DNA from: Cyanophora paradoxa CCMP329
Lineage: Eukaryota; Plantae; Glaucophyta
Assembly (NCBI GenBank): GCA_004431415.1
Contig: QPMI01000082.1
Coordinates: forward strand, 1 to 64,000
Direction: 5' to 3'
DNA length: 64,000 nt
The notes below the pieces were generated by a model that worked only from the letters and a program-made list of their open reading frames with translations, did no database searches and was not told the origin of the DNA. The position numbers and the translations under genes are program-made. Of the stretch, positions 1 to 20,393 are shown one piece after another (the stretch's first letter is position 1; every line of letters starts with the position of its first letter).

Positions 1-97
1 TGCGGATCGAATTCGATGAGCACCATGCGAAATTGATGACCCCCACATCCACGCCGAGGATCTTCATCCCAGGTCGCAAGAAATCTGAATGAAGGGG

Positions 98-313
98 ATG
101 GCAGAGGCCTGGGCGGAAAAAATTCATCGGATGGTGCATCGACATTACCGAGATGAGTTCTTCAGCTCAGACTACAGCCAAAGCGTTCCAGACATTCTGA
201 GCGATTTCGAAAGCTGCATTAGAGAGGGCTGCGCGCTGCTAGGTATCGACTACGAGGACCTGGAGCTAGGTATCGACTACGAGGACCTGGAGCACCTCGA
301 AAAATCTGAATGA
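98..313 (+). CDS. Small viral hypothetical protein with a duplicated LGIDYEDLE
   Basis: Open frame 89..313; upstream motif AAATCTGA at 81 favours ATG 98; 27-bp tandem duplication at ~239-292. Confidence 0.55.
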   Translation: MAEAWAEKIHRMVHRHYRDEFFSSDYSQSVPDILSDFESCIREGCALLGIDYEDLELGIDYEDLEHLEKSE

Positions 314-323
314 AGGGGGTAAA

Positions 324-1407
324 ATGGCCAAGGACCCAAGAAGCCGAAGAAGCCGAAGGCGGCCAAGCCCCAGCCCGCCCAGCCCGCAGGCGCAGCGCCC
401 GCGGCCCCCGCCCCCGCCGGCCAGGCCACCGGCACGGGCTCGGGCACGGCCCCCGCCGCCGGCGCCAGCTGCGCCATGGGCATGACAGAGGACGGCCAGC
501 AGCTCACGCCCGAGCAGGTCAACGCCTTCCTCGACAACTCGAAGACGGGAGGCATCGAGCGCATGGCCTGCCTGCCGAGCTCAAGTGGTTCGACGTGAAC
601 ACCGTCAAGTCCGACGCCACGGTCGTCTGCGTCGGCAAGCGGCGCACGGGCAAGTCCTTCTTCCTCCGCGATCTCATGTTCAACCTCTCCGGCACCTTCC
701 CGGGGGTATCGTGATCAGCCAGACCGATCGCCTGAACGGCTACTGGAAGCAGTACATCCCGCAGCGCTTCATCTGGCCCAAGTACAACCCGGGCGTGCTC
801 TTCCATTTATTCAGGAGGCAGCAGGCGATCATGCAGCACAACAAGTCCGAAGACGTGCTCGCGGGAAAGGAGATCCCGTCGACCCGCGATTTTTCGTGCT
901 GCTCGACGACGTGATTTCCGACGCTCGGCTGCGGTACGACGAGGCCCTCAACGAGCTCTTCGTGGCGGGGCGCCACTACAAAATCATGACCCTTATCACG
1001 ACGCAGTATGCCAAGGCATCAATCCCGTCCTGCGCTCCAATACTGATCTGGCTGTCATTTTCAAGTGCTCGCAGGCGATGCAGCGCGAGGCCCTCGCAAA
1101 GGAGTGGGGCGACATCATCTCCCAGCGCGCCTTCTACTACCTGCTCGATAAGTACACGCAGGATAACCACTGCCTTATCATCGATTCTTCCAACAACTCT
1201 ACGAACCCTCTGGACGTTTTGTACGTCTACAAGGCCGAGGAGCCGCCCCCCTTCCGCATCGGATCCAAGGAGTACTGGGAGGGCGAAAACCGTCAACGGA
1301 GAAAATCTCGTGGTCCGGACGGCACGGTGGACAAGACGCTCCTCGGCATGATAGATAATTTCAGGAAGCACCCGCCGCGCCTGATTTTTTCTGAGGTTCG
1401 TGCGTAG
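324..1407 (+). CDS. A32-like (FtsK/HerA superfamily) viral DNA packaging ATPase, frameshifted as assembled
   Basis: Joined frames give VVCVGKRRTGKS (Walker A), FVLLDDVISD (Walker B), ELFVAGRHYKIMTLITTQY, LRSNTD and YKAEEPPPFRIGSKEYW. Confidence 0.93.
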
Positions 1408-1408
1408 C

Positions 1409-1735
1409 ATGTCGCCAGCGCCCACATCGCCTCCGTCTTCCGCGTCGAGTCCATCGCTTACGACTGCCTCCTGGAGCGAGCCTCGACCCCTCCTCGCCTT
1501 TAACGACGGCGAGAGTCAGCAGCGCCCTGAGAGGATCTGCACGCGCTGGAATTAACTGGAGCGCCTGACCGCGGAGGCGGCGGACGAGCCGCCCGAGCGC
1601 TGGGCAGTGAGGACACCACTCGAGAGATGACAGACGAAAGGGAGACAGGTGATTTACGTGCGCGACCCGGACGATTTGCACCTCGGAATCGGGCTCGGAG
1701 GAGCAGAGGAGACCGAGACGAGACTCGACGCCTAG
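1409..1735 (+). CDS. Viral hypothetical protein, frameshifted; end approximate
   Basis: ATG 1409 preceded by the viral upstream motif; no recognisable family. Confidence 0.35.
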
Positions 1736-1767
1736 GCGCGCCTTAAAAATTCCGAGGCGCTAGGAAA

Positions 1768-2085
1768 ATGTCAAAGGTGCTCCTAGGCTCCCAGGCTATC
1801 GTGCAGTACGCCCTCGCTGGCATCCGCTCCTCATCGACGCCGCCTTCTCTCGCACGAAGGCGAAACAGGCGGGCCACGCAGCGAGCTCGCCGCGCAAGTC
1901 GCCGTCAACGGCCTCTCCCTCGGCCTGCTCTCGAAATACGTGCTCACCCTCAAGTTCTTCGACGACGACCCACCGGCGATTATGTTCTCCTCGGATCACA
2001 CACGGCAGACGAACATGCTAATCAAGGCTACCAGCGCCGCTTCGAATCAAGCAGGCGCTCGAGCGGAAGCCGCCGCGATCACTAA
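1768..2085 (+). CDS. Viral hypothetical protein, probably frameshifted
   Basis: AAAATG start with upstream AAAAATTCCGA; ORF 1768..2085. Confidence 0.45.
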   Translation: MSKVLLGSQAIVQYALAGIRSSSTPPSLARRRNRRATQRARRASRRQRPLPRPALEIRAHPQVLRRRPTGDYVLLGSHTADEHANQGYQRRFESSRRSSGSRRDH

Positions 2086-2868
2086 AGAGTAGTAAGAGTA
2101 GGAAAGAAATGCCAGTCGTTGTACTCGCAGATCCTGTCAAATCGAATCTAACTCCGAGAGTTTCTGCCTGCTCTTGAGCAAGGGAAAAAGGGAGTGCTGG
2201 CAAATCAGCAGCACGAAATCTGCTGAAAACGTAATGTATTGAGCATGTTCTTCCTGCCCTGCGACTTGAACATGCTGAAGGACCTCCACCAGGCAACATC
2301 TCCTGCACCGGTCATGTCCTCCGCGCTCATCGAGCGGCGCGCTCGCCGTGATGCGCCACTTGATCTGCGCCAGCGCTCATTACTTCTGCTGCTTCAGAGC
2401 CGGAAACTTGCGATATTGTCTTTGCTCCACTCCTTCCCGCCATGCGCCTCGCAATAGCTGCAGCACGTCCTCGGTACCGGAGAATCCTCCAGGCAGTGCT
2501 GCTTAAGTCGCTCGGAAACGTGTACTTGCGCAGTAGTTGCTGTGGAGCTCGCTGACAGCCAGGGTTGATGGTCCGGATAATAAAGATCCAGGACCAGACC
2601 GCAGCCTTGGCAAACCAGATCCCCATCCAGGTGAACACCAACGAGGGCGGTAGAGCTGCAATTTCCGCAGGGACAGCGCTTCGCCTTGGGCCTTGGTGCG
2701 CGTTGCGCTGCGGGGCGCTCTCCGGCCCAGGTAGGAGTTGGCGATGCGCGGCGCGGCGGGGTACGTGCCGGAGTGTCAAGTCTGGGTCCCCTCGTCGTGA
2801 AGGATGGCGCCGTAGCGCTGGATCTGCTCGAAGTTTCGAGAGGAGATCGATTTCGTTAGAGTCTGCAT
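2082..2868 (-). CDS. Viral late transcription factor 3 (VLTF3, poxvirus A2-like), frameshifted; start approximate
   Basis: Minus strand across frames: Zn ribbon CPCGNC...DLVCQGCGLVL, HxSERLKQ, GRKNMLN.YVF, FPLLKSRQKLSELDSI..ICEYNDWHFFPTL*. Confidence 0.88.
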
Positions 2869-3080
2869 TCCTCTGAGTCCTCGTACTGCAGCTGAGCTAT
2901 TCCCCTGCAGAACCAACAGTTGGCTTCTCAGAGGAGTGGTCCCACTTGCAGTGAGAACACTTGTTGCAGAAGCGTTGCTCAGTGATTCATGTGAGGCTCA
3001 GTGATGTCAGGTGAGGTGCGACGTACCCGGGCCCCACGTGAAGCTCACCCCAGCTCGAAAATTTTCTAGCCTTGTCTGAC

Positions 3081-3875
3081 ATGCTCAACCTCATCGCGAG
3101 GGCGTGCAGCAACAGGCAACCGCACCGAACCCTCACCTCCGCATGGACGCCTCCGGCCGCTCCGGTAGAGACGCACATCGTGGTGGGCAACATCAACGAC
3201 AAGTGCTGGCGCCCGACAAGACGTGTTCCAGAAGTGCTGGACGCGCGCCCGTGAGAACTGAACGGGAGATCGCCGCAGCGCGAGTCGAATTTCATGATCA
3301 CCATCCAGACCAACTACAAGCCGCGGAGCAGGGAGAGCTCCAAGGTGCAGACGCGTTCACAGGGGCTGGAGCCCTCTTCTACGACGACAGGCAGCTGGCC
3401 GTGCATAAAGATGGGTGTACCCCGACAAGGCGAACCCCAAGGCTTCGATTCAAGTCCACCAGTACGACACGCACGTGGAGAAGGCAACGCGAACATCGGC
3501 ATCGAGTACGGGCCGCGGTCGGGCGGCTCCACGCGCACATCCTGCTCACGCTGGTGCACTACTCGCGCGTGCAATTCGACGCAAGAAGCGTCGATTTCCT
3601 CATCAAGTTCATGCAAACGGAGGCAGGCGGCCTGCCGAATTTCTACAAGGACGACTGTTCGGGAGGAGTACCAGAAGACGGCGGTGCGGCCGATACGGAG
3701 AAAGGACCCCTCGGCATGCAGTGGACGGCAAGGAGACGGGCTACAGGAAGCGAGAAACCGCCAGGCAGATGCACGTAGACGTAAAATTGCTGCCGCAGAG
3801 CAACCTTAAGATCTGCTGCAGCTGTACATACGAAGACGTAGAGGCCTCGAGACGGCGCTGTAAAGCTCGTGTAAA
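3081..3875 (+). CDS. HUH-superfamily (rolling-circle Rep-like) endonuclease, frameshifted
   Basis: Motif I FMITIQTN (~3291), motif II GIEYGPRSGRLHAHILLTL (~3498-3553), motif III-like LLQLYIR(K) (~3815-3836). Confidence 0.78.
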
Positions 3876-3895
3876 TTTTTTCTCGTGTCCAATAA

Positions 3896-4830
3896 ATGCC
3901 TCGAAGCGCCGAGGCCGCAAGAAGACCAGAGAGCTCGAGCGAGTCAGAGGAAGAGGAGCCACGTCCCCGTCCTCCGAGTCGAGGAAGAAGAGAGAAGAGA
4001 AGAGGAGCCGAGCCTAAGCCGAAGGGCAAGGCAAGGGAAGGAAAGGGAAAGGCAAAGGAAACGCGCCCGATACCGCGTGGACGAGCTCGAGACGCCCGTC
4101 GTTGAGATTCCGAAGCGATACTGCTGTTCAGCGAGGACGCATATTCCAGCAGCAGAAGAGCATATCCGATTACATCAAGCTCTCGCACCAAAGAAGTTCA
4201 GATGCTCCATCGCTGCTCGATAAATCATACCACGAGCCCGACCTCTGGAGCATCCACAGCGAAATCGAGTACGATAAACTCCCGAGGAGCGACTGCGCGC
4301 CATACCGCGCACGTACCAGAGCGCGCAGAAATCGCCGCCAATCTGCTACCGCTGCCTTCGCCTCATGTACGAAGCACGCCCGTGCCGAGCGCCAAGGGCC
4401 AACACGCCAGAGAAAATCGCCGCGAGGAGCAGCGCAGGCGAGAAGATGCCGTGTACGAAGAGTACGTCCGGTCATAGAGAAGGCAAACGCGTGGGCGCCA
4501 AGCAAAACGCAAGGAAAGAAAAAGGGCCAGAGCCGTACCCCTCATCAAGGACAAGAAGCCGCGCAGTGCCCACGTGTCGCCAGAAACTCGTGCTCTGCCA
4601 GAAGTGCGTCACGCTGCTCGGCAACAAGGGCCTGCTCGTGATCTTGGCCTGCAGAGGCGAAAGAGGGCGACACGGCCACCGTCTCCAAGCAGACGCGCGA
4701 CCACATGGTCGAGAGCGTGCTCGGCGGGCCGAAGCCAAAGACCACGAAAAAGGCAAAGATACGGCCGCTGACTTCGATCGTCCGTCATCGAGCCCAACTC
4801 TGCGCAGTCGAAAATCAGAAAGGCGAAAAT
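3896..4830 (+). CDS. Viral hypothetical protein with charged N-terminus, frameshifted; end approximate
   Basis: Motif-preceded ATG 3896; protein-like segments in alternating frames. Confidence 0.5.
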
Positions 4831-4842
4831 CGTGCGCCGAGC

Positions 4843-5830
4843 ATGGAAGATTAATGGCAACCTTCGCGGACGCGCAAGAGGTAAAGCAGAACATAGAGAA
4901 GGCGAAAACGGACTGCAGGCGCGCAGGCAACGGCTGGAGCGCTCGAGAAGTGATCACGGAAATCAGCGAGACGGGCGGTCGTCTTCATCCTCAACAAAAA
5001 GAATCCCGACGGAAGCACGCGGTACGACATACGACAGGCGCGCCAGTCGCGCTACTGGTGCTCTTCAACACCCACAAGCGCCTGGGAGAGCGCGAGAATT
5101 CGAGCGCGCGCTGCGCGACAGCCTCGCAGAGTGCTCTCGGATGCAGAATTCTACAAGTTCATACGCTTCAATATGAAGGAAGAGAACGGCAAGTACAAGG
5201 ACGACACGTACGCCAACGCAATCATCGAATTCGCGTGCAAGGGCGTGAGGTGGGCCGACGACGGCGCGCTGCACGCCCACGTGCTGTGACGATCGATCAC
5301 ATATCGAATTTGCAGTGCTGTGGCGAATTACGACTGGTGGTGCTGCTGAAGGAGAAGAGCCGAGCACCACGACGTGTACGAGCGGCTGCACCAAATTCTG
5401 TCCGCGAAATTCACGGCGCGGGCAGCGCCTCGTAGACCAGAAGAGGCAGAGGCAGGCCTCAACCGAGCATCGATACGATGGTGAAATCGCAGAGCTCGAG
5501 CGCATGCTGACGGAAGAGAAGATAGGCATGGGGAAAGATCCGCCCACCGTCCTTGCGTCGCTGATCCCAGAGAAAATTACGCGAGCAAGCTGCAGGAGTA
5601 CCTCTCAAAGACGCTGCCCGACAAGCAGAGGCGCATTTACTGAAAGAGTGTCGCACGCGCGAAACACGAACAACACCGACAACAACACGGACGGTACTCT
5701 TCACGATTTCCAGCGGACGCCGCCAGGCGGACGATCCCCGCTTCGCGCCGCAGGCGCGGAAATCGCGACCTGAGGCCAGGGCCGAGGCGCGGCAAAGGCA
5801 AGGGCGCGAAGGGAAGGTAGCGGATAATAA
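4843..5830 (+). CDS. Viral hypothetical protein, possibly VLTF2-like; frameshifted, boundaries approximate
   Basis: Protein-like segments (YKDDTYANAIIEFACKG); possible YWC and FCS..C remnants that require indel repair. Confidence 0.35.
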
Positions 5831-5848
5831 ATCTGACGGCCCGCGAAA

Positions 5849-6049
5849 ATGTTCCAGGGAATGCACCCACTCGACATCATCACCGTCGTCTGCGCGCGCT
5901 CTTCCTGTCTCGGAGCTGCTGGCGGCACGAGCGCGTCGGCCCCAACACATGCTGGGCGCCCTGAAGGCGGCGCCCTTAGGGTCGTCCGCCGCGACAGCCC
6001 GAGCCCGAACCCCACCGAGCAGCAGAGCGCGAGAGCACGCAGAACATAG
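5849..6049 (+). CDS. Small viral protein with hydrophobic N-terminus
   Basis: AAATCTGA motif plus AAAATG start. Confidence 0.45.
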   Translation: MFQGMHPLDIITVVCARSSCLGAAGGTSASAPTHAGRPEGGALRVVRRDSPSPNPTEQQSARARRT

Positions 6050-6112
6050 GCCGCACCACGTCGACATTCAGATGACGCAAACCGGTACCCGTTTTTTCTA
6101 GAGAACATGGAA

Positions 6113-6454
6113 ATGGAGACTCCCGCGACACCAGCCCCCAGCGCAGAGGCTCCAGCGCCAGCAACTCCAGCAGCAGCACCGCGGCCTACCCTTGGCTTCT
6201 TAGGACTTACGCGCGAAAGAAGCAGCAGCAGCCGAAGCACCGGCGAAATGGCGGCTGACCTGGATCGGTGCACCGCCGCGCCATCGCGAGCTACGCCAAG
6301 CGCGTCGAGCAGTACCACCCCAGATGGCAGAGGACGCCGGGCGTACGCGAAGAACCCGCCGCGAGCCCGCCGTGATGGCCGCCGTCATCGACCGCTGCAG
6401 TGGGCGCTGCACGAGGAGGGAGAGCGCGTCAGGAATTTCTTCATGCCCAAGTAA
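6113..6454 (+). CDS. Viral hypothetical protein with Pro/Ala-rich N-terminus
   Basis: ORF 6107..6454; TTTTTCTA motif 16 nt before ATG 6113. Confidence 0.55.
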   Translation: METPATPAPSAEAPAPATPAAAPRPTLGFLGLTRERSSSSRSTGEMAADLDRCTAAPSRATPSASSSTTPDGRGRRAYAKNPPRARRDGRRHRPLQWALHEEGERVRNFFMPK

Positions 6455-6475
6455 ATTTCTGAATGGGCCTTAACA

Positions 6476-6658
6476 ATGTCGTCCATGCTCCGAGCCTCGA
6501 TGATATCACCAGCGATTCCCGCTACCTGGCAGCCTGCTGACCCTCGGCGCGGTCGCCTACATGTCGCCCGCCGCTACTACCTCGTGCGATCCTCGCCGCG
6601 CAGTTCGCGGGCTACTACTTCGTGGGCCCTACCTCCTCAACGGCCTGAGGAAGCATAA
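6476..6658 (+). CDS. Small viral protein
   Basis: AATTTCTGA motif 18 nt before ATG. Confidence 0.45.
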   Translation: MSSMLRASMISPAIPATWQPADPRRGRLHVARRYYLVRSSPRSSRATTSWALPPQRPEEA

Positions 6659-6679
6659 TTTCTCAGCCCCTCCTAAATA

Positions 6680-7121
6680 ATGTCCTGCGTCAACCTCTAC
6701 GTCCAGTCGAACGGAGAGACGCAGGATTCCGAGGCTTCTGGCGCCTCAGGCTGAACCAGATCCCGCCGACATCGACACGCTGCAGATCAAGGGCGTCTAC
6801 CTGAGCTGACACGACCGCGATTCCGGACCCCACCGCCGCGAAAACCGTCAACGTTCTGCTGATGGACGTGCCCGACTTGAACGTCACGACCATCTCGAAC
6901 GTCAACACGTGCATCAACAAGGTCGTGATCCCGACGTGGGCCACGACGGCCTCGAGAACACCATCCTCTACTGGTTCGAGTGCCCATGGCCGTGCGCCCG
7001 AACTACGTCGCGTACGACAAGTTCCAGGAGCTGCGCGTGCGCTTCACCGACATCACGGCGCCACCAAGAAGAACAACGCCTTCATCGTCAAGAACTTCGG
7101 CCTCTGGCCTTTGCGAAATAG
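6680..7121 (+). CDS. Probable minor capsid (penton, single jelly-roll) protein, frameshifted
   Basis: ~145 aa, beta-rich: MSCVNLYVQSN...LQIKGVYL...NVLLMDVPDL...FQELRVRFTDITG, resembling the penton C-terminal pattern. Confidence 0.55.
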
Positions 7122-7141
7122 ATTTTCGCAGGCCCCCTTAA

Positions 7142-7599
7142 ATGCGCCTGATCATATTCCGCGAAGGGCTCGGGCGTCAAGACGCGCACCTTTACGGCGT
7201 GCCTGGCTACCCTCGCCCCTCACTTACAGAGTCGATCTTGTAACCGCCTCTGGTCCAATTAAATACGGGCTGCTGCACAGCCTCAGTCACATCCGTCTCG
7301 GCGAGAGCGCATGCAGGACTTGGCCTTAATCGTAGAATCGATACAGGGGTAGACACGCTAACGGCGAGCACGTTTACAGGTACGGTAGCAAGGAGGGTAC
7401 TCGCTGCCGAACGGCACGGGCGGAATACTGGGAGCCGAAAATACGCGACGCCTCCGAGGCCTACCGCTGCTGCGTGACGAGCAGATCACTATCAGCCCGA
7501 TTACCCCTACGCCGACGTTTCTGGCAGTGCCCGTGGCCGTTGGACAACGGCGAGGTGAGCGGCAAGCTGAAGTGGACGTGGACGCGGAGCATTAGTTAA
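7142..7599 (+). CDS. Viral hypothetical protein, frameshifted
   Basis: Motif-preceded TAAATG start; fills the gap to the next motif. Confidence 0.4.
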
Positions 7600-7620
7600 T
7601 TTTTCTCTCTCGCGGATAAA

Positions 7621-10600
7621 ATGTCGATGCTCGACGACCCTGGCGCATGGCCATCCCGAATCCGGACGAGGTGCTGAACGCGCCTTCGCGATAGACGGGA
7701 GCCTGAGCGTGAGGGAATTTACGCGACGAGATAAGGCTGCGCAAGGCGCGACCTACAGCGATTCCTGACGTCCGTCGTACCTTGGACGATTACGTGACCT
7801 CACCGCAATTATCAAGGGCTCTGGGCGTCACGACCGAGACGGGCGTGACTGAACATTATTAGAGGCGGCCGACGTGAAATCGCAAACTCCGTACAGCGAA
7901 AGACGCCACCCTGAACCTCGTGAAACTGACTCTAAAGGGCGCAGAGGGGACGTGAGGCCCGGTACAACGCACTCGAGCGCATCGCGGGCCCCTGCGCCAC
8001 ATCTACTGGAGCCGCCAGCGCTGCCGAGCATGGAGCCCGAGCAGTACAGCGCGACAGGAGAGTTTTTCGCGTGGTTCGACCACTTCAAGTGAACATCCGC
8101 GCCCTGAGCGCCGACAGACGGGCGAGACGCCGGAGACGACGGGCGGGGCCGCATCCCAACGGCACCCGACGTGCTCCCGATCGCTCAGACTGGGCGAAGA
8201 CGCAGAACTGGCGCTGAAGGACCACTTCCACGACGAGAGGTACGCCCTCGTCAAGCACCGCATGTGAAGCCGACATCACGACTGGCGCACCGCCACTGTA
8301 CGACGACATCATCGCGGCCCAAGTGCCGGCGCGATTCCGGTGGGGTACGGCGCGGAAGCACGGGAGGTGGGTACAGGCACGGGTGGGGTACAGGCACCGG
8401 GGTGGGTACAGGCACGGGGCGGAGGGGCTCCAGTGCACGCCCGTGGAGGGGCGGGTAGCAGCGGCTCGGTGGCGCGGCTCGGCGGAGAGAGCGCGGAGGG
8501 GTACGCTCGTGCCGATCCTTGTACAACAACGGAATCTTCGGCGGCCCTGATTGCAGCGGTGCAAAGTACTACAGGATCGAAGGCGTACGAAAGGGACATT
8601 GCAGAGCTGCAGAAAGATAACAAAACGATCGTTTACTCAGACGAGCAGGTGAGAATACTGCAGAGGAGCTGAAGACAAGGGAGCGGCAATTTAACGAAAT
8701 GAGACAGCGGCCGAGAAAAAGATAGCGACGATTTGAAAGAGGCGAGCGATAGAATTGAGAAATCCCTGGAGGCCGAGGAGAAAGCCGAGATCCGGAAGAG
8801 AGAGGCCGATAGGATCGTGGAAAACGCGATAAGGAGGCAAAGGAGCAGGCAAGACCGAGCTGGAGAAACTGGACATGGAAATAGCAAACAAGTCAACATA
8901 GCAAACGAGGTCGAAGAGGCACAAAGATGCTGGACGATGAGCGAAAGCAGCGGAGAGCAAGCCAGAAAAGCAAAGGAGATTTAAGCAGCTCGAACTGCGA
9001 GAACAGGAGAGCAGAAGGCAGAGGGCTCGCATCCACCATACGATTCAACCTAGAGCAGCAAGTGAAAACGCTGACGCCGAGCTGCAGAGATAGGACGCTG
9101 TGCCAAGGGCACAATGGAGACGCAGACGACGCCAAGCCCGATCCAAGGCCGCCGCCGAGAGCTGCCCTTCGCGCGCTGGGTAGGAGCGACCAGGTGAAGA
9201 GCTCATTGCCTCACGCTCGAGGATCAGAGGCCCTCTTCGACGCGTTAGAGCAGCGGCGCAGGCGGACGAGGAGGCAGCTGCAAGACAGAAGAGGAACGAC
9301 TGAAGGCAATGCAAACTGCATCAGACGAGAATTTGCACGGCTGGAGAGCCGAAGGTAGCGGAGCGTAAGCGACGACTGGAGACGTTCAGGGGGCGCAGAT
9401 GGATTTTACCGCTCGGAGCTCAAAAGACTGAAAGAAGAAATGCATCGGGGACAGGCTCCGCGCCATGGAAGAGAACATGCGCGACTTTAGCTACGTTATG
9501 GATCAGCTGACGGAAGGGTCAGAAAGACGCCGAAGAACTGAGGAGAAAGATGCCGATGAGAAGTGGAAAAACTTTGAGCGTCAGGCTGTTCAGAGCCATC
9601 AGCGATGCCATCTGGATAGCATACGCGACGTGGAGGAGATGCACAGAGAACTGCGACGGAAGCGAGCCTGTGGCGGGAGCCCTCGAATGGTCACTGTACC
9701 GGATACAAAAGGGGAGTTTTGGCAGAGCTGCGAGCCAATCCGAAAACGGTGAGCGCGGCGCACAGACGCGTACCTCTCCATGGTCGATTACGTGGCAAGC
9801 TGAGCAAATTTGGAAATGCGAAGAGCCATCATTCCAGCGAGGGCTCGCGCAGTACGATGCCATGGTGCGCGATCTGGAGGCCTTCAAACGTGAGCACCAC
9901 CCGCCAAATACAAGATTCACATAGATACGACGGCATTCATGGCGATCTAAGAAGAGAGAGACGAGGCAAGAGTCAGATCGAGGAGCGCTACAGAAAGCCC
10001 AAGCGGACAAGGAGTACGCAAACAGGGTGATCGAAGAGCGAAGCAGCAAGCCAAGGAGAACGCGCGAGACGCAACGCCGAGATAGAAGAGCAGAGCGGAA
10101 GATCGCAGAGCGCAAGGCGGCAGAGAAGAGGCAAGAAAGACCAAGGTAGAGACAGAGTACCAAGCATTGAAACGGAGGCCAATCAACTGTTAAAAGGAGG
10201 GAAGGCCTACGCGACGAGGGCGGGCGTGGCTCGGCCAGCCCGGACACATCACCCTCGCGGAAAGGACGACGTTTCCGTAGAGGAAATGCGCCCGGCACGG
10301 CTCGCCTGCCCTCCGAGGGCGTATTCAGACGCTCGACAGGCGCGTGATGGGCGACTCGGACGTTATTCTGCGCAACGCCCTCATGCCCTACGGCGACTGA
10401 ACCGCGCCACCGCCGACGCCCTTGCTGATTTCGACCTCGAGCGATTCACCACCAAAGAGCAGCGCGACGCCTTCCTGGGCGCCCGAGGGCCAGGCGGCCC
10501 GGGTGCCAAGGAGCCTTCAGCGCAGAGACCCTCTTCTCCGCGATGGTACGGCGAACAACGACGGCATGTCTTTCGGGGCAGCCGATTTATTCAGGGGCGG

Positions 10601-12541
10601 GCATCGACTTGGTGGCGCCGGGCTGGGGGTACGGCTCGCGGCCATGCGGCGGGCGGCGCGCGGCGGCCGGCCTTGGGCTGGCGACGGCGGCGGCCTGCTC
10701 TCGCCTACCAGCGCTCTCGCAGGGCAAGATAGGGGAGGCCGAGTTCTTCGATACGTTCCGCGATCAGATGATCATGACGGTCGGCTCTTTTGGCCTTCAG
10801 ACGGGCATGTCGTCCGCCCTGAGCGCCCTCACGAAAATGAGGATCGCACGGTGGGCGGACTTGGCCTGTCCATCCTCGCGGCGCCATCGCGCAGTGATCG
10901 TGGATATCATCAACGGGCGCAGCGCGGAAGAAATCGTGAAGAACTTTTCAAGTACCCCGTCGACTGGGCGACCGACACCATACAGTTCATCGCGGAGCTC
11001 TCGCAACAGATCTACGACTGGGCGTCGAGACGTGGGCGACGAGGCGAGCCAGCTGCGCAACCGAATTAATCGGCTGGAGGCGAGCTGGGCTCCGGATTTT
11101 GGGTGTGTACGACCCTCGGAGGCGCGCGAAATGCCTCGCTCTTGGCCCAGGAGCTGCGGTTAAACGAAATCAAGGAGCGAAGGAGCTGCAGGCCTTCATT
11201 CGCGCGCTCGACAACAGCATCAACGATTACCGTACCCCCAAGGACCAGAAGACCCTGCTCGAAATCGATCGCGCGACCGTGCTCTTCCTCTCCAGCTCAC
11301 CGTTAAAATGCAGGAGGCTTCGGGTCGACTTCGCTCGCCCTGAGTCGACTTATGCGCGACCTGAAGCAGATGATAAAGAGGAGACCAAGGGCGGAAGCGC
11401 GTCTTAATTGCCGTCTACCAGGAGGGCCTCAACAGGATCAATCACATCGAAGCCCTAAGGCGCGAATTCGGCTCGGCCATCCGTCACTCGGCGTCTCGTC
11501 GAACGGAGGGCGCAGGTGGCCCGCCTGGCGGACGCCAACTCGCGCCTCGAGATTCCCGGACCTTCCGCATGCAGGATTGGTGGGAGGCCGAGGCCTTCAG
11601 GAATTACGGGCCTTCATAGACAACGGATCAATTCGCAGAGCCCCAAGGCAAACTGGCTGGTACCCAAGGCCTACGTCGATAAATGGTTGACAGGCCTGCA
11701 GCACCATACACCAAGAAGATCGCCAAAGGCATCGAGTACTGGGCGCCCGAGCCAGGCCAGCCGTGTTTGCATCGCAGAACTACGAGTGGCACATGGCGCC
11801 GGGGCGAGCCAGCCGTGAGCACCGTGGGCGTTGCCGTGCCGCAGCTGGCGACGGTGGCACACACGGGGGCGTATGCAGATCTCAGCGGAGGCCGACGATA
11901 CCCGTGATACCAACAACGTGGGCGTGGATAGCATCACGGGAAGCCGAGTACGTATCCCCACGCAGACCACCAGCACACCATCTCTCAGATCAGCGACTGG
12001 ACGGCCCCGGACTTGACGAACATCTCCGTGGATTGGGACAACGTAACGGGCAAGCCACTTACCTTCCCCCCTCTACACACAGTCACAATGTGTACTGGGA
12101 TAATGTCATCGACCGACCCACTTCCTTCCCACCCTCTACGCACAGTCACACAGAGTACTCGCTCACCAGCCACGGGCACAGAAACGTGAACATGGATGCG
12201 TACATAACGCACGGCACGTCCTTCCACTCCTACGCTGCGTACACGGAGTTTAACATCAATTCAACATACACGGTGACGTTCAACATTACATTCGGACAGG
12301 CGTACGACACTGGAGGCGGACTGGGACCCCAGCAAACCCAACGCCGGTTATTAACGTAACCCCCTCGTTCGACATCAATCCGGCGGCAGCACGGATGTCG
12401 ATTTCTACGGGCCAACGTCACGGCGGTGAGTCACACTGGCTTTACAGTTAAAGTGAGATTCCAACCCAGAATGACGGTCACGCCCACCCAAATTGTCCAG
12501 CTTTTATTCATTGGACCGCGATCGGCAAGCTGCTTATGTAA
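7621..12541 (+). CDS. Very large (~1600 aa) putative virion protein: coiled coil, hydrophobic helices, C-terminal phage tail repeats; heavily frameshifted
   Basis: Continuous protein-like + strand segments with no internal start motif seen; E/K/R-rich 8600-10200; hydrophobic 10600-11000; LATVAHTGAYADLSGRPTIP and WDNVTGKPLTFPPSTHSH repeats at 11840-12175. Confidence 0.6.
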
Positions 12542-12565
12542 TCGATTTTCTGATGCAATCCAAAA

Positions 12566-13611
12566 ATGTCGGTCGCTGTCCTCTATTTACCTATGCTGCC
12601 AGCGTGAATCACAAGGGCGATCACACGATTAAGGAGACCACCCTCGGAAACCAGGCCACGAGGCCCCCTACAACGCCACGGCCGTCCCTTTTCCGAGGCC
12701 GACCTCGTCCGCGTCGGCGAGCTGCGCTGCGACAAGATGCGCACGCGGGAGGGCGGTCGGCCGTGCCGGGGCGCGTGAGGACGCAGAGGCTCACCGTCAC
12801 GAACGGGCCTGGGACGGGAGCGGGTACACCACGAATCAGGTGACCTTTAATGGGACTGTGAACGGGAGGGAATGCGGCTCTGTATGTGCAAGGAGGCGGA
12901 GCAAACGTGGTGGGGGCTTAGGGTGAGCGGGCTTCAAACTTGGCGGCATCGTTACATTGGACGATAAGCTGCAAATTACCGGAACGTCACCGTACATAAA
13001 TGGCGGTGGTTCAGGCGTAGCTATAAAGTACAACGAAAACGATAGACTCCTCTGTGGGACTCTTGGCGTTGGTGTTACAGGTACTCTATTTACCTCGGCA
13101 ATCGAAGCCCTACTAATGGCCTAAGCATAGCAAACACTTCAATCGTTGATAGCGGAAGCGTCAGCTCTGGTCTATCCTTGAGAAACAACGGCACCGAACG
13201 ACTGCTGTGCGGAACCGTCGGCGTTGGCATCACGGGTCGGCTCATCGTCTCGACGCTCACGGCGATGGAAACCGAGCCGTTTATTCGGATGCTCAAGGAT
13301 ACCTGACAAACTCGTCGAGCGATAGCCGCCTGAAAGAAAATGTCGCGAGCATGTCGGGCATTCTCCCTCTTCTGCTGCAGCTGAATCCCGTGTCGTTCAC
13401 CTGGAAGAACACATCCTCGGGGGTTCGAAACGGATTACGGTCTCATCGCACAGGAAGTCCAAGGCGTCTTCCCGAGTCTCGTTTTCGAGAACGCGGATGG
13501 ATTTCTCGGGTAAACTACGACAGGCTCATTTCCCTGTCGTTGAAGGCAATTCAGGAACTTTCACAAGAAGTTCAAACTCTCAAAGACCAGGTAGCGGCAC
13601 TGGCGAGCTGA
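12566..13611 (+). CDS. Fibre protein with C-terminal peptidase S74 intramolecular chaperone, frameshifted
   Basis: SSSDSRLKENV (~13318), LNPVSFTWK, YGLIAQEVQ.VFPE, VNYDRLISLSLKAIQEL then a coiled coil; internal RLLCGTxGVGxTG repeat. Confidence 0.85.
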
Positions 13612-13631
13612 TCTGGAACAACTAGGAATAA

Positions 13632-15750
13632 CTACACCGCGAGTATCACAATTCGACCGTTGCCACCGTCGCTGAAAGACGAGCCACCGTTGCCGCCCCT
13701 ACCAATGCCTGCTGCGTAGTGAGCGTCTCCGCTATTTCCTGCCACCTGGCCGGACCCAGGATACACCGTAGCATCCGTCAAGTTTCCTATGTAGCTCGAG
13801 CCACCGCCACCTCCAAACATTCTTGCTATTGGTTCTCTGACACTCCGCTCCTGCTGGACCCAGAGCCTCCACCGAAGTAACCACCACCACCACCACCACC
13901 GAACCTGTAGCCGCTTGAATCAGGCCCAGTCTCTCCACCTTGGCGCAAAGTTCCCGGGTTGCTGGCCTGGCCCTGAGGCCACAACACCGGCTCCGCCAGC
14001 GTTTGGGTGCCTCCTTGAGCCGGTATCTCTCCGGTTACTCCAACCAACCCAGCCGCACCACCGGTCAACCCCCCGCCTACTCCCCCGCCGCCATTCGAAT
14101 CACATGTACCCCACCTCCGGCCCCTGCAACAACCAAGTCGGTCCCTGCAACGCGCTGAATTGCAGAACGACCACCACCGGCGCCGTTTTTGTACTCCGGA
14201 TCGACGCTATGGCTCCAGCCCTTCCACCACCTCCGTAGACGGTAGCAGTGGCAGTCCCCGATACACCCTTTGGGCCGCCGCATCCAACAACAAGGATGAG
14301 CGTCTCCCCGAGGACACAGCCAATGTACCAACTACGCAAGCACCCGCGCCTCCACGGACCCCCGTACCTGCGCGTTCTCCGCCTCCACCCCGGCCGCCCA
14401 TACGATGACACGCACAGCCACAGTCCCGTTGGTACTACGAAAGTCTGGTCGGCCCCGGTGTAGGAGAATGTACCCAAAACAGGAGCGTTTGCAGTTGTTG
14501 CACTGGCAGACGAGGACTGAGGGCCTTCCTCGCCGATCTGGTTGACGCCCTTGATGGTGTAAGTGTAAGTGGTTCCGTAAACGGTCGTTGTGTCCGAAAA
14601 GGGCTGCTCGTGTCGCTGGCAAGGAACACGCCACCCTGTAGATGTTGTAGGAGACGGTGACGCCGTCACCGGCACCGACCACTCGAGCACAACAGGCTGT
14701 GCTGCCCCCGCCGCGGGGTTGCAGTGAGCCCAGTGGGCGCCCCCGGTCCGTGGTGACGTACGCCGCAATACTCTTCGGCCCTCCCTCCCGTGTTCGTCGC
14801 GGAGATCTGGTACTCGTACCCTGTACCCCAGACGGTGGTCGTGTCGCTGTAGGAGTTGGTCGCGGAGTCTGTGAGGTAGGCCCCGTCTCTGTAAATCTTG
14901 TATCCCGTCGCTCCCGTGGACGCAGTCCAGCTGAGGCTGACAGGCTGCTGCTGGTCGTTGGGTGCTGATGCCGTCACGTTCGTGGGGCGTTTGGCATAGT
15001 CCAGACCAGGAGCGGATCGGACTTGTCGTATTCGACACCGCCCACGATGCCGGCCACCTGGTAAGAGTATTCCGTGCCCCACGTAAGAGCAGTGCTATCG
15101 TCAATGTACGAGGTAGACAGGGCACTGCTCGCAAATCCGATTGGCGTACCGTTCCTGTAAATTCGAATCGAGTCCGCGCCCTCCATGGCCACCCAGTTGA
15201 TTGTGACGACTATGGCGGGTTTCGGGAAGCCCGAAGACGCGGGCCGCCCCGGCAATAAAATCGCCGTAGGTCTGGGCCGTGCGGTCGTGAGCGTGGTGTA
15301 GGCTTCGATCTGCGGGCTGAAGCCGCCTATGCCTTGGAAGAGAATGTAATTGCTCATGGCACCCTCGTGGTGTAGAGAAGCGACTGTGCGTAGGTTGTGG
15401 GCGGGGCTTTGCCATCAGAGCCCGTGCTGCTGCTGCCCTGTTCGCGAACCGCCGCCACGCGGTAGAGTCGCTGGGCCCCAAACTAAAGGGAGAGTCCGTG
15501 TAGGTGACGGTTGGCGCATTCACCGTGGCCACGAGATCCCAGGGCCGTTGATGCTGGTCGCCCTGTACACCTTGTACTTGACGGCGTTGGTGACCGCGAC
15601 CCAGTTCAGCTGAAAGCCGTACGTACTGTTCCCGTTGTTGAGCACGGAGCCCGATCGCACCTGGGGCCTGCCCACAGTCAGCGAGATCGGCTCCACGCCA
15701 TACTGCGGAGCCTGCACCACCTGCTTTTTCACGAATACGAAGCGGGGCAT
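13632..15750 (-). CDS. Fibronectin type III repeat protein with C-terminal glycine-rich (ALK/LTK-like) domain, frameshifted
   Basis: LNWVAVTNAVKYKVYR, LSWTASTGATGYKIYRDG, YTYTIKGVNQIGEEGPQS; [45 protein letters not shown]. Confidence 0.82.
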
Positions 15751-15788
15751 TTTCCTCTACGATCCGAAAAAATATCTGCCCCGGGTAA

Positions 15789-16465
15789 ATGACTTCCAAC
15801 TGGTACCAGACCCTCAGCGGCTCACTTGACGTTGGCAACAACACCAAGGATTTCGCACGCATACCCTCCGGCAGTTACGTCGACGTCTTTCTGCAGAATC
15901 CCGTCGTGATTCAGGTCGTTCAGAACGCCTACGCCACGCCCAAGATTTATTCCTACCAGCTCTTCTTCGACCCTCTGAGCCTCAGCGCAGAGGTTATCGA
16001 GCTGCTGCACGAATCAGGACTCGTGAAAAAGGTGGCACCTGCCACGGCCACTGCCAACGTCTTGCGCTGTCTCGAGGTCAAGTTCAGGGAGACGGGTACG
16101 GCCCCACCGTGAACCGGTACCCCAGTTCTTCGAATCTTCCGGGTACGGGAACTTACCAGATGAGGGGTACGCTCAAGGGCGACGTGCTCTTCACGAAATT
16201 CAATCCAAGTCCCGCGACCCTGGGGCCCTCTACACGGGCGGCAACCCACGCGGCTCGACTCTACCCCGCTTCCCCTTCACCTTTTTCAGGTTCCAGGTCT
16301 TCCCCTCTCCTACGCCGCCGACCAGCCCACTTCAGCACGGGCGCCAGCCTCTGCGCGGAGCTGCGTGAGTGCTCGATTTCCTACGCGTACGGCACCGACG
16401 CTGACTCTGTGCCTGGGGCCCGCGTCATGAACATCGGTGGCGACATCACCCTCTTTCACGGATAA
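15789..16465 (+). CDS. Viral orphan protein A, paralogue of the next gene
   Basis: ORFs 15789..16112 and 16109..16465 joined by frameshift; shares sequence blocks with the gene at 16489. Confidence 0.7.
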
Positions 16466-16488
16466 TCTTTCTCATTTGAGGTCGCAAA

Positions 16489-17299
16489 ATGCCGACCACC
16501 TCGGCCACCATCGTGAAGACCGTGTCTGCCGGCTCGATCGTCCCCGATTTCTACGGCAACGCTGGAACGTGGCCAACGCAGGGACGGACAAGGTGGAGTG
16601 GGACGGAAACTACGCCACCCCGCTCACCGTGAGGGTCCAGAATCCCGTCATGTTGCGCGTCACCTCCAACGATTTCGAGAATCCCGCCTCCTGCTCCGTG
16701 TACGTGTACTTTGACATCGACTCGGGCGTGAGCGCGGATGAGGCGGAGGCGCTCTGGCTCTCGGGCCTCCTGAAAAAGATAGAGCCCTCTGTGCCTGATC
16801 GGCCCGCCATTCGCGTGCTCGAACTCAAGTTCACCGCTAACACCGCCCTCACTCGCAAATTCGGGAATGGTGCGAATCCGAACATCAAAACGCATTTAGA
16901 TGGCGCCCTCATCGATGCCACACACAAGACCACGCAGGCCGTTCCCTTTGAGATGTACAACCTCTGGAAGATGACCGCAAAGGAGATGATGACGAATGCC
17001 ACCACGGGCGGCGCCTCGGGTACCGATTATTCATACGGCGCCTCGAATCCCGTACCCAGGTCTGGCCCCGGCTCCTCTTCACGAAATTCACTTTCAAATT
17101 GTACAACAACATCGCCGGAATGCCTACCTCTGGAATGGTCGTGGGCTCTACCCTCATGGCCGAACTAATTGAGGCAGAGGCGGACTACACGACTGCGACT
17201 ACCAACTCGACAGCGCCAGGCGCCGGAGCCGAAGTTTACGTGGCCTGGGAAACGGTCGGTCGCGAGTACGACACCAAGATTCACACCACTAGCGTCTAG
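16489..17299 (+). CDS. Viral orphan protein B, paralogue of the previous gene
   Basis: Motif-preceded ATG 16489; QNPVMLRV, SGLLKKIEP, RVLELKF, LFTKF, GSTLMAEL. Confidence 0.7.
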
Positions 17300-17335
17300 A
17301 CTGGCTAAGCTGCATTAGCACCTGTGTCGCCTCCA

Positions 17336-17653
17336 TCATCTCCCGAATCTCCTCGCTCTTCTCCTGTAAATTGGCGTACCCCTCCTCTTCTTGCGAATCT
17401 CCGACATTGATGCCCAGCGCAGGTTCTCCCTCCTGTAGTCCAGCGGGTTGCCGTTGATGTGTTCCACGTAGCGTCCACGTGGCGACTTCCCGAGGATCAG
17501 CTGGGAGAGGTAGTGCTTGCGCCCTCCGAACGTCTTGCTCACCCTGTCCCTGTCCACTCTCCAGGGAAACTCCAAGGCACTCGGGGGTACGTCCGAGTTG
17601 ACCAGGACGTTGTAGGCGACGTCTTGCGAGTCGGTGCACCGGAGCAGGGCCAT
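17336..17653 (-). CDS. HNH endonuclease-like protein
   Basis: YLSQLILG...VEHINGNPLDYRRENLRW. Confidence 0.8.
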   Translation of the reverse strand: MALLRCTDSQDVAYNVLVNSDVPPSALEFPWRVDRDRVSKTFGGRKHYLSQLILGKSPRGRYVEHINGNPLDYRRENLRWASMSEIRKKRRGTPIYRRRARRFGR

Positions 17654-17677
17654 TTTGCTCTAGGTTCGGAAAAACCT

Positions 17678-17758
17678 GGGACTTGGGACTTGGGACTTGG
17701 GACTTGGGACTTGGGACTTGGGACTTGGGACTTGGGACTTGGGACTTGGGACTTGGGA
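17678..17758 (+). repeat. (GGGACTT)x11 tandem array
   Basis: Counted directly. Confidence 0.98.
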
Positions 17759-18183
17759 AGAGTTGAAACCCAGGTCCCGGCCCAGACTTTCTCCAGGATC
17801 AGAAATTTGTCAGACAAGTCAGGTGAGTTTTTCTACCGACTTTTTTACTCCTACCACCCCTCGTACTCTTTTTTACTCGTAGTCTTTTTTACTCGTATCC
17901 CATCTCGTACCCTCCTTCTCTCGACATCTCGCACGAATACTCCTACCCCTCTTCACATCCTTTTTCGGTTGCATACTCTCGTGAGCTTTCATGTCCAGTT
18001 TCATGCTACAAGTCGTACACCAGTTCAGACTCTACCTCGCTTGAAATCTCACCTGGAATGTCACCAGAAACGTCGTATCCAGAATTCCGTACCCCTTTCT
18101 AAGTCTGCCCGGTGGTTAGGGACTTGGTGCAGCAAACTCTCAGATCCAGAGAAAGTCTGGGCCCAGACCCTGAGTCTAACTCT

Positions 18184-18229
18184 TCCCAAGTCCCAAGTCC
18201 CAAGTCCCAAGTCCCAAGTCCCAAGTCCC
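18184..18229 (-). repeat. (GGGACTT)x6 array, inverted relative to the array at 17678
   Basis: AAGTCCC x6 on the + strand. Confidence 0.98.
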
Positions 18230-18303
18230 AGGATCGCGCCAAGTCGTAACTGAATAGTCGGACAATTTTTACAAGTATGTACAGTGGAATGACGCAATAC
18301 TAT

Positions 18304-19532
18304 TTACAGCATCTCAAAATCAGAGTCATCATCGGAAACCAAGTCAATCGGTGCATCGGGCGCGGACTTAAGGGGAATGCGGGGAAGGGCCTGCGCTGCC
18401 TGCACTAAGTCCTGCCGCTCCTGCTCGCGCTGCGCCGCCAAGGCCGCTGCCGCCTCTGCCTCGCGCCGCTGCTGAGCCTCGACGCGCGCCCTAAGTTCCG
18501 CTGCCTCCTTCTTCTTGCGCTCGGCAATCTTGGCCAGCGTCATCTCGCGACGAAGAAGGCGCTCGTGACGCAACTTGCGCCGGAGTTCGGCCATTTCGCG
18601 CTTGGCGATGATGCGCTTCTCAATGGTCTTGACGTGCTGAGTCAGGCGCTCGGTGTAGTGTGACGTCACGCGAGAACGGGCAATGCCAGCGCCGATCTTC
18701 AAGTCTTTTTCGTGTTCCTTGGCGGGATTCTTGACTCGCTCGGAGTTGTCGGTGAATGACGTGGTCTCCATGAACTTCTTCTTGACGATTGACTTGGTCT
18801 TGATAATGCGGCGCTTGCGAGTCGGGTTTTCGTTGTCGCCTTCAGAGTCAGAAGACGACTCAGAGTCGTATGGAATCGGCACGTCAAAGTCGATGAAGTC
18901 GTTGATGTCAGACTCGGCGTCAGAGGCCTCGGACGTGGCGTCATCGGCGGGCTGAGGGGCGGGCTCGGCGACGGGCTGAGGGGCAGATGACGACGATGAC
19001 GGAGGGGGGTAATTCGTGAAGACTTGCGGGGGGTAGGCCCAGGCGAGCGTTTCGGCGGCAGACTCGGCGAAAAGCTTGGGGTCGCCCCAGCCAGTGGGAG
19101 TCTTGACCCAGCCGGGGACGGGGGGCACGTCGTCAGAGGGCTTGGGAGGGGGGGCCTTGGTGTTGCGCCAGTACGTGCCGGTCCACTCCCAGTCGGAATA
19201 AGGCCAGGCTGCAAAAAAATGGGAGAAATCAGCCAAAGTCGAGAGGGAAAATCAGAGGGGCTCACCGGGGGGGCCATCGGCCCAGGCCTTGTAGCAGGGG
19301 TGAAGTTTGGCGCCTTCTTCTTCTTCGAGGGGGTGTACGAATCTCCCCTCGACGACGGCCTCGACGGTTTCGTGGAAGGGTACGAGGTAGAGCTCGCCTT
19401 CGTACGTCTCGTACTTGTACCGGAGCAGCTGAGCGCGCCGTTGCATGTCGGGGGTAGGCTGTTGTCCGGACTTGTGCAGATTGCGGGCGGCGACGAGGTC
19501 TATGTCGAGGGCGGGGATAAGGCTTGGGCATC
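18304..19532 (-). CDS. Orphan protein (Trp/Pro-rich, acidic, coiled-coil) with a spliceosomal intron at 19265..19209; start at 19446 or 19532
   Basis: Removing the 57-nt GTGAG...TTTTTTTGCAG intron joins ORF 19252..19446 in frame to the 310-aa ORF (ADGPP-A-WPYSDW). Confidence 0.7.
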
Positions 19533-20036
19533 TGCGCCAAAGGGAAAATCGTCAGGCAAAGGCAAAACGTGAGGTGACTGTGAGGGCGGACTTGCACGGA
19601 TTCGGAGAGGCAGAGTTTGCTTGGGCTGAGAGAGGCGGCGAACCCGTTTCAAGAGTGAGCCAAAATGGCGGCGGACCGCGGTTTTGTGGGTGATTTTTTT
19701 CGCGGTCTAGTTCGCAACGGAAAACGTTGCCAACTGGCCTGAAAAAAGCCAAATTTAGCGTTGGGCCGAAGGCAGAAAAAGGAGCCGGCCTGACGGAAAT
19801 CGCCCGAGTGCGTCCGCCGAAGGTCGAGTCTCGGATGGGGGTACACCCTCAGGGGGCCCCTGGTCCCTCACCCTGGTAGTACCCTCTCAAAGGGATTTTC
19901 GAAGCCGTACAATTCTTGGTAAGTCTCGTAGTCCGGGCTGTACCCCTCACAATCTGCGGGAGCCCCATTGAAAGCCTCCGTCTGTCCTCTCTCAATTCCC
20001 TGCGGAAAAGACTGCGGTCGCTTCGAGCTTCGCGCG

Positions 20037-20336
20037 TCACGCCAGCTGGGCGTGGTCTATGATTGTTAGGGTTGTCGTAGCCTGGCCCACCAGCCTCACG
20101 AAATTTTCGCGTACGGCCTCGGGGAGACTCTGGAAACGGCTCGTCGCGTGGAACTCAATCCATTCATTGAATCGACGCGGATATTGACGGATGACTTCAA
20201 GCACGCCCTGTGTGTTGGGCTCTGGTGTTATGTCGGGAATGTCATGTCCTGTGAGGTGCCAACGCCAGAACTCGCGCAGCCTTTCGAATGCCATCTGCAA
20301 CTCAAAGGGGAAATCGTAATAGAGATTGCCTGACAT
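20037..20336 (-). CDS. Viral hypothetical protein (99 aa)
   Basis: Intact MSGNLYYDFPF... frame; ATTTTCGGA motif plus AAAAATG. Confidence 0.65.
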   Translation of the reverse strand: MSGNLYYDFPFELQMAFERLREFWRWHLTGHDIPDITPEPNTQGVLEVIRQYPRRFNEWIEFHATSRFQSLPEAVRENFVRLVGQATTTLTIIDHAQLA

Positions 20337-20393
20337 TTTTCTCCCCGTCCGAAAATTTCCCCGCTTTTGGGTCCAGACTCTGATTTTAACTCT

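Follow-up and report, generated by a model that had tools for sequence, protein, structure and literature searches.

Positions 1 to ~20.7 kb of contig QPMI01000082.1, from the glaucophyte Cyanophora paradoxa CCMP329 (assembly GCA_004431415.1), are part of a multi-copy endogenous mriyavirus-like element in which a short motif, a run of A/T followed by TC, lies just upstream of most genes. We analyzed the first 64,000 nucleotides (nt) of this contig (hereafter, the window), using its host part for comparison. The closest homologues of the element's proteins are gene models labeled Cyanophora paradoxa, which form an 18-member cluster for the ATPase and a 12-member cluster for VLTF3, each on many contigs. 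Since ATPase models are listed on 22 differently named contigs, the element is multi-copy and endogenous. Most differences between short-read contigs and the window are gaps (7 substitutions and 120 gaps in one 2507-nt contig), indicating that most frameshifts are long-read errors; each spacing given below therefore probably carries roughly 1 nt of error. Summed word depths from one DNA run were ~1800–6100 across 1–17600, figures that give no copy number. Three runs taken, as a guess, to be RNA gave contigs that covered the element unevenly, with a peak at 6458–7044 and zero coverage in some bins; this evidence of expression is weak, as such contigs reveal neither transcription start, strand nor level. 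Earlier reports describe regions related to Mriyaviricetes in a glaucophyte assembly (10.1101/2025.04.19.649669) and viral regions of C. paradoxa that are methylated (PMC12344493).

The gene content, an ATPase, VLTF3, and an HUH endonuclease without a polymerase, fits the class Mriyaviricetes as described (PMC11253617), whose genomes measure 35–45 kb. The A32-type packaging ATPase gene (324..1384, plus strand) is broken by indels here but intact (356 amino acids) in other copies. The protein has a weak Pox_A32 match, is ~50% identical to gamadvirus ATPases, and groups with them (FastTree support 0.956, midpoint root), although the gamadvirus clade itself (0.986) excludes the element's ATPase, which is sister to it. 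A sequence search of the PDB with the ATPase gave nothing significant. VLTF3 (2094..2990, minus strand; start at 2868 or 2990), which has a TFIIB-type zinc ribbon, was identified by PF04947 on its homologues and an Atlas score of 0.96; its predicted fold had a predicted local distance difference test score (pLDDT) of 39.6. The HUH endonuclease (3081..3874, plus) contains motifs I, II (RLHAHILL), and III (YITK) in intact copies and is 27% identical over 200 amino acids to a gamadvirus HUH protein (pairwise E 8e-15), without a Pfam match. Profiles made from gamadvirus loci, within 10 kb of the ATPase, detected only the ATPase and VLTF3 in the window, plus a weak HUH match by tblastn. Neither Pfam nor gamadvirus profiles matched MCP, VLTF2, RuvC, PDDEXK, or helicase genes in the window, with no profiles specifically built for VLTF2 and helicase, and no DNA or RNA polymerase gene was seen in the 20.7 kb (99 of 168 frames scanned). 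The missing genes have to be read knowing that the element extends past the left edge of the window and is damaged by indels. Like the Gamadviridae (PMC11253617), the element has an A32 ATPase facing VLTF3, an HUH gene plus a putative second HUH-containing gene, and the same motif. Unlike them, it has an ATPase outside the clade, a long HUH gene of ~640 codons rather than 1592–1860, and no match to the other gamadvirus family profiles.

The sites listed in the earlier note, 15 pairs of TC and ATG on the plus strand and three minus-strand starts, were all correctly placed, with 14–19 nt between TC and ATG at all 18. At the left edge, a weak site (81..100, plus; TC 84, ATG 98) is a 17-nt duplicate of 302–318 and has an in-frame ATG at 89. 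TC 305 precedes ATG 324 of the ATPase (300..326, plus). It is followed on the plus strand by a small gene with no assigned function (1384..1735; TC 1390, ATG 1409) and by a probable homologue, on a weak match, of a small helical protein encoded after the gamadvirus ATPase (1743..2090; TC 1751, ATG 1768). The VLTF3 gene has no motif at 14–19 nt. A palindromic sequence, GAAAATTTTC (3056..3083, both strands), holds the HUH motif (TC 3065, ATG 3081) and, on the reverse strand, eight A/T followed by TCG at 3058, which lies 68 nt before VLTF3 ATG 2990. Next on the plus strand comes a long gene (3872..5820; TC 3881, ATG 3896) with a second, C-terminal HUH-like motif (LHAHVL, read by eye across frames). 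Small genes follow at 5824..6099 (TC 5832, ATG 5849), 6092..6454 (TC 6097, ATG 6113 or 6107), and 6452..6658 (TC 6458, ATG 6476; hydrophobic product), then a gene for a beta-rich-looking protein (6655..7118; TC 6661, ATG 6680), one without assigned function (7122..7598; TC 7126, ATG 7142), a very long coding region with an approximate end (7596..12540; TC 7604, ATG 7621), and a fiber-like gene with a Peptidase_S74 chaperone domain (12545..13611; TC 12549, ATG 12566), all on the plus strand.

Further right, a glycine-rich gene with fn3 similarity and an approximate end (13632..15775, minus; TC 15767, ATG 15750) diverges from the gene at 15767..16465 (plus; TC 15775, ATG 15789) across a 38-bp spacer (15751..15788) whose single A/T run serves both strands. 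The gene at ATG 15789 is a paralogue of its neighbor at 16463..17299 (plus; TC 16470, ATG 16489; 40% over 68 amino acids); neither has a Pfam match, and the second has no Atlas match. The remaining sites precede an HNH endonuclease gene (17336..17675, minus; TC 17670, ATG 17653) and a 99-codon open reading frame (ORF; 20037..20358, minus; TC 20352, ATG 20336). By our own reading of three-frame translations, ~18 of the 20 genes with a 5′ end in the window carry the motif, in agreement with the earlier claim that it precedes almost every viral gene.

Aligning the 18 sites on TC gave a fuller consensus of (A/T)4–9 TC(T/G/C)NA; the A at +4 is present in 13 sites, and positions −3 to −1 before the ATG are rich in A. 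When at least six A/T followed by TC were sought in 1–20700 on both strands, without choosing starts, 12 of 36 sites had an ATG 14–19 nt downstream, compared to 2.4 per equal window elsewhere and 0.7–1.0 (maximum 4) in block shuffles (200 per setting). For at least five A/T followed by TCT, the figure was 10 of 17, compared to 0–2 in ten control windows. A leave-one-out matrix ranked the 18 starts 1–14, 16, 20, 22, and 27 among 445 viral ATGs. Thus, the positional enrichment that the earlier note proposed to check against shuffled and host controls is present, far above the shuffles. TC by itself is weak evidence, since 146 of 326 A/T runs of at least 5 nt (45%) end in T followed by C anyway; position and the A at +4 carry the signal. 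Starts 98 and 6113 are weak, being preceded by in-frame ATGs at 89 and 6107. The further claim that the motif locates true starts despite frameshifts was borne out where we compared starts with other copies, at 324 and 3081: 17 of 22 gene models begin MAKDP at the former and 7 of 12 begin MLNLIA at the latter.

The host part showed a slight excess for five or more A/T followed by TC (11 of 64, ~5 expected, p 0.015 uncorrected, with one site entering the count twice through an inverted duplicate) and a weak one for the version ending in TCT (4 of 18). An inverted duplication of ~700 nt, 98.9% identical, occupies 44608–46008 of the host part. Strongly scoring host-side ATGs are at 21889 (minus), 47577 (plus), and 61709 (plus) and open ORFs of 106, 35, and 24 amino acids; a TATATAA-like run is present at the first.

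The motif is also found in related viruses. Using a four-sequence ATPase alignment, we retrieved 75 viral loci (~50% identity), reduced to 35 groups with 570 mechanically called ORFs; scans with close ATPase or VLTF3 queries had retrieved no loci. Table S1 of Yutin et al. (PMC11253617) names contigs returned by the metagenome scan as gamadviruses (L094, L155). All motif statistics refer to the 75 loci and 35 representatives, as further sets of 80 and 61 loci served only for names and the HUH search. Because searches toward other mriyavirus groups gave the same gamadviruses or one contig, the statistics cover gamadviruses and not Yaraviridae; moreover, the counts do not represent independent events, given the relatedness among groups and among gene families. 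De novo, the most enriched upstream 6-mers were TTCTAA (98 occurrences, 4 expected, 45 gene families) and TTCTGA (110, 6 expected, 42 families), and TTC(T/C)(A/G)A stood upstream of genes in 33 of the 35 groups of these marine viruses. The motif peaked 16–26 nt before the ATG, while four A/T followed by TG, AC, or AG showed no peak. It occurred 12–28 nt upstream of 202 of 570 gamadvirus starts but of only 265 of 14486 other ATGs. By gene, it preceded MCP (15/18), RuvC/A22 (15/16), YqaJ (23/27), HUH_long (3/3), a putative SSB labeled from gene order (20/26), and the ATPase (24/36 with a broad pattern); the helicase start lay outside the stretches examined. A count of 3/36, under which the gamadvirus ATPases seemed to lack the motif, reflected an overly strict pattern and was discarded. 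No second, early-type motif emerged from the 185 starts without the core, whose top words were variants of the core.

In gamadviruses, the motif was present at 71 of 174 divergent and 185 of 372 tandem starts, and since only 4 of these 185 coincide with the upstream stop codon, it is not a stop-codon effect. Where the motif lies inside the upstream gene, it constrains codons: in the gene upstream of the ATPase, 14 of 15 Phe-Ser pairs close to its end are written TTT-TCT, compared to 16 of 266 elsewhere. A matrix trained on gamadviruses alone (11–30 nt allowed; width chosen with the window motif already known) selected the same TC at 18 of 18 window sites and placed the 18 starts within the top 29 of 442 ATGs (area under the curve 0.993). 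At a threshold of at least 8 bits, it recovered 15 of 18 viral starts and 10 of 856 host ATGs. Larger giant-virus loci taken through the same pipeline (34 groups) showed no enrichment, with 18 of 519 starts compared to 682 of 19203 other ATGs (3.6% background). Three of these groups (L247, L270, L272) have a slight upstream excess of TCTA (p 0.006–0.03, uncorrected).

The motif also revealed a small gene. It occurred at 23 of 154 gamadvirus convergent gene ends, 17 of them behind the ATPase, and in 22 of the 23 an ATG follows that opens at least 43 amino acids. Directly after the ATPase, 29 of 36 gamadvirus rows encode a conserved helical protein of 111–130 amino acids (for example L015:4568-4906, plus), whose gene overlaps the 3′ end of VLTF3 antisense by 248–380 nt. 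As ATPase and VLTF3 bear consecutive numbers in Yutin's table for both genomes that we checked, this protein seems to be unannotated there. Its predicted fold had a pLDDT of 91.8; fold matches were weak (best E 0.009) and led by uncharacterized nucleocytovirus proteins, and a PDB fold search gave nothing significant. The window gene at 1768–2090, in the same position, matches it weakly (hhalign probability 39, E 3e-4).

Other features lie at the ends of the element. The 17-nt motif-holding sequence at 81–97 and 302–318 flanks a 71-amino-acid ORF with an internal 27-nt tandem repeat, which looks like an insertion with promoter duplication. The right end (~17.7–20.5 kb) contains three arrays of 7-nt repeats (TCCCAAG/TGGGACT) with shared unique flanks, inverted and direct. 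Two motif-bearing starts adjoin the arrays, which are possibly an origin or end structure; Phaglo-G is likewise described with flanking short tandem repeats. Between TCCCAAG arrays sits an intron-bearing gene (18304..19660, minus; GT-AG intron 19265–19209, probable second ending at 19532), for which no start was found on direct reading of the sequence. Its membership of the element is uncertain, and it is a candidate for a host-type or immediate-early gene or for one outside the element.

How does the motif compare with known promoters? The earlier note called it late. This label is not borne out as stated: in gamadviruses the motif also precedes VLTF3, RuvC/A22, YqaJ, the putative SSB, and HUH_long. 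The motif looks near-universal, not limited to structural genes, and a broad post-replicative class is possible. The proposed likeness to the promoter of Cafeteria roenbergensis virus (CroV) and mavirus held in part. In published descriptions, the CroV late motif is a TCTA tetramer with A/T-rich sequence on either side (PMC5294985, PMC8547959); CroV possesses an RNA polymerase of its own, on which mavirus, as a dependent of CroV, relies (PMC5294985, PMC8547959, 10.1101/068312). As in the CroV late, mavirus, and type 4 endogenous mavirus-like element promoters, a short TC(T) core follows an A/T run upstream of many genes and is near-universal in a small virus. The resemblance is closer in gamadviruses, where TCTA is the commonest core (58/202) and flanks are 76% A/T upstream and 61% downstream. 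In contrast, exact TCTA occurs in 2 of 18 window sites, whose flanks are 85% A/T upstream and 42% downstream; the conserved part is TTC-Y-R-A (Y, pyrimidine; R, purine), and the element encodes VLTF3. The motif seems to work like a CroV-type element, but we do not class it as a CroV promoter.

Other systems are more distant. Poxvirus late TAAAT and African swine fever virus TATA initiators likewise combine an A/T-rich tract with a start-overlapping element near the ATG, in viruses that encode VLTF homologues (PMC5294985), but differ in sequence, are read by a viral cytoplasmic RNA polymerase, and were mapped experimentally. Medusavirus is a nucleocytovirus with VLTF3 and without an RNA polymerase (PMC8400408) and has motifs upstream of genes (PMC8557863), but those described there, which include an early palindrome and a poly-A tract, do not resemble TTCYRA. 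The late TATT promoters of beta- and gammaherpesviruses, read by RNA polymerase II (Pol II) of the host with viral factors, are a functional analogy from unrelated viruses with unrelated factors, in which a mimic of the TATA-binding protein binds TATT.

The element itself and short A/T-flanked promoters are already known. In our literature searches (subscription papers and bioRxiv supplements fell outside them), we found no description of a mriyavirus or gamadvirus promoter. The word "promoter" is absent from the main text of the mriyavirus paper (PMC11253617), and the available portions of the polinton-like virus framework, Ariadnavirales, and endogenous-element preprints describe no mriyavirus promoter. 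Those of the PgVV and Antarctic papers treat promoters of polinton-like viruses and virophages only. We conclude that the motif is a real, conserved, and apparently undescribed promoter-like element.

The motif is tightly positioned, is strand specific, is conserved in relatives, and constrains codons where it overlaps an upstream gene. The explanation that we favor, with about an even chance in our judgment of being right, is that the motif is an initiator-type promoter located where transcription begins, and that host Pol II reads it with the help of viral VLTF3 (and VLTF2 where present). For Pol II, a TATA-like element lies 25–30 nt upstream of the transcription start. As the motif is only 14–19 nt from the ATG, it is not such an element. 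From this geometry, the first transcribed nucleotide would be at TC or just past it, probably the purine of TTC-Y-R-A, leaving 5′ leaders of ~10–16 nt; late promoters of poxviruses and African swine fever virus are laid out in this way (PMC5294985). Three window starts (324, 6476, 12566) have out-of-frame ATGs at +4/+5 from TC, and an in-frame one lies at 89; this placement would fit a transcription start too close for their use. One promoter class may then serve most genes. Each gene would be transcribed separately, with a short leader, and divergent pairs would be driven from A/T runs that are palindromic or shared. Gene content suggests that the polymerase would be the host's and the specificity factor viral. 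Of the two enzymes proposed in the earlier note, host Pol II is likely, because mriyaviruses lack an RNA polymerase (PMC11253617), and that of a helper giant virus is less so, given the element's own VLTF3 and the lack of enrichment in larger-virus loci.

Some observations weigh against this explanation. Y-R is present at +2/+3 in only 11 of 18 window sites; 3 of 857 host-part ATGs score at least 10 bits; and two gamadvirus families have the motif 45–55 nt upstream. One RNA-guessed contig begins ~13 nt upstream of TC 3065, and two more begin upstream of 5832 and 6458, although from contigs neither the point where a transcript begins nor its strand can be read. The VLTF3 starts in the window (2868, 2990) lack the motif at the usual spacing, ranking 292 and 233 of 445, and 134 and 188 of 442 with the gamadvirus-only matrix. 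Gamadvirus VLTF3 genes, for their part, mostly carry the motif (21/28 within 70 nt). Since the VLTF3 gene itself has the motif, a viral factor leaves the first round of expression unaccounted for, except if it comes packaged or the host has a weak ability of its own to read the motif. VLTF2 was not recognized in the window, with no VLTF2 profile specifically built. Finally, the Yaravirus authors, in the portion of their preprint available, found no promoter motif (10.1101/2020.01.28.923185), so the motif may not extend to the whole class.

We note some details of the aberrant sites. The idea that window VLTF3 lacks the motif because it is an early gene was dropped, since most gamadvirus VLTF3 genes have it. 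A putative 52-nt leader intron (3048–2997, minus) would put the 3058 site 16 nt from ATG 2990. RNA-guessed contigs from two studies end near 2995; no such joint is listed among these contigs, and the intron is a lead only. In gamadvirus families 2 (for example L049:693 and L065:8947) and 10 (for example L020:14035), the motif is 45–60 nt upstream, inside the upstream gene, and the spacers in L049 and L065 end in CAG immediately before the ATG, as a 5′-leader intron would.

Who reads the motif could be answered differently. Eukaryotic initiators have a pyrimidine-purine core, as does the motif, and host basal Pol II machinery might read it alone, with VLTF3 unnecessary for recognition. That the gamadvirus motif precedes VLTF3 itself and DNA-metabolism genes agrees with this, as do the few high-scoring host-side ATGs and the weak host excess. 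However, only 10 of 856 host ATGs reach the 8 bits attained by 15 of 18 viral starts, and the same motif in a glaucophyte element and in haptophyte-linked gamadviruses (PMC11253617) fits a virus-encoded reader better; we consider host recognition alone unlikely, if not strikingly so. It is slightly harder to credit that the motif copies a helper giant virus's late promoter, in the style of mavirus and CroV, and that a factor or the polymerase of the helper activates the element in trans. A single near-universal motif is the mavirus pattern (PMC8547959, 10.1101/068312), and the prevalence of TCTA among gamadvirus cores and its slight excess in 3 of 34 larger-virus groups point the same way. Against this, the element has a VLTF3 gene of its own, the larger viruses sampled show no enrichment of TTCYRA, Yaravirus is described as building a factory of its own in the region of the nucleus (10.1101/2020.01.28.923185), and RNA-guessed contigs came from three runs of the host organism, infected or not.

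The motif could instead act in RNA, whether by signaling the 3′ end of the upstream gene, as an acceptor for trans-splicing, or as an element of the translation leader. Overlap between the A/T run and the stop codon of the gene before it is frequent, and four sites (1390, 3881, 6097, 7604) read TTTTTCT, which resembles the poxvirus terminator T5NT; site 7126, ATTTTCGCAG, resembles a splice acceptor, and A is frequent at −3 to −1. Yet the motif is found at divergent starts and is absent from the window's three convergent junctions, the relatives' convergent cases resolve into hidden starts, and 6 of 18 spacers contain no AG, making a role in RNA quite improbable, although a translation leader may still be at work. 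Chance, meaning A/T-rich spacers in a compact GC-rich genome with convenient ATGs picked, could draw on the 45% of A/T runs that end in T followed by C and on the two starts with an earlier in-frame ATG. Its probability is close to nil, as it is refuted by the gamadvirus enrichment, the de novo 6-mers, the cross-trained matrix, and the larger-virus loci as a negative outgroup; the shuffles, the control windows, the codon constraint, and the missing peaks for TG, AC, and AG also stand against it.

VLTF2 and VLTF3 are giant-virus hallmark genes that mriyaviruses keep without an RNA polymerase, and the motif offers a way to test their transcription. A conserved, tightly placed element is a concrete DNA target, in an alga that carries at least 22 copies and is reported to grow axenically (PMC12344493). 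The motif is also an annotation tool, which recovers starts in error-rich assemblies and exposed the ~115-amino-acid gene antisense to VLTF3. A bolder version of the explanation that we favor, which strikes us as possible but doubtful, is that an entire branch of mriyaviruses has one core promoter, TTC(T/C)(A/G)A preceded by an A/T run, and that this is the direct target through which VLTF3 and VLTF2 redirect host Pol II; it would represent the ancestral nucleocytovirus post-replicative promoter, of which CroV TCTA would be a descendant. If true, transcribed copies in a culturable alga would be the first system for studying VLTF3 action without a viral polymerase.

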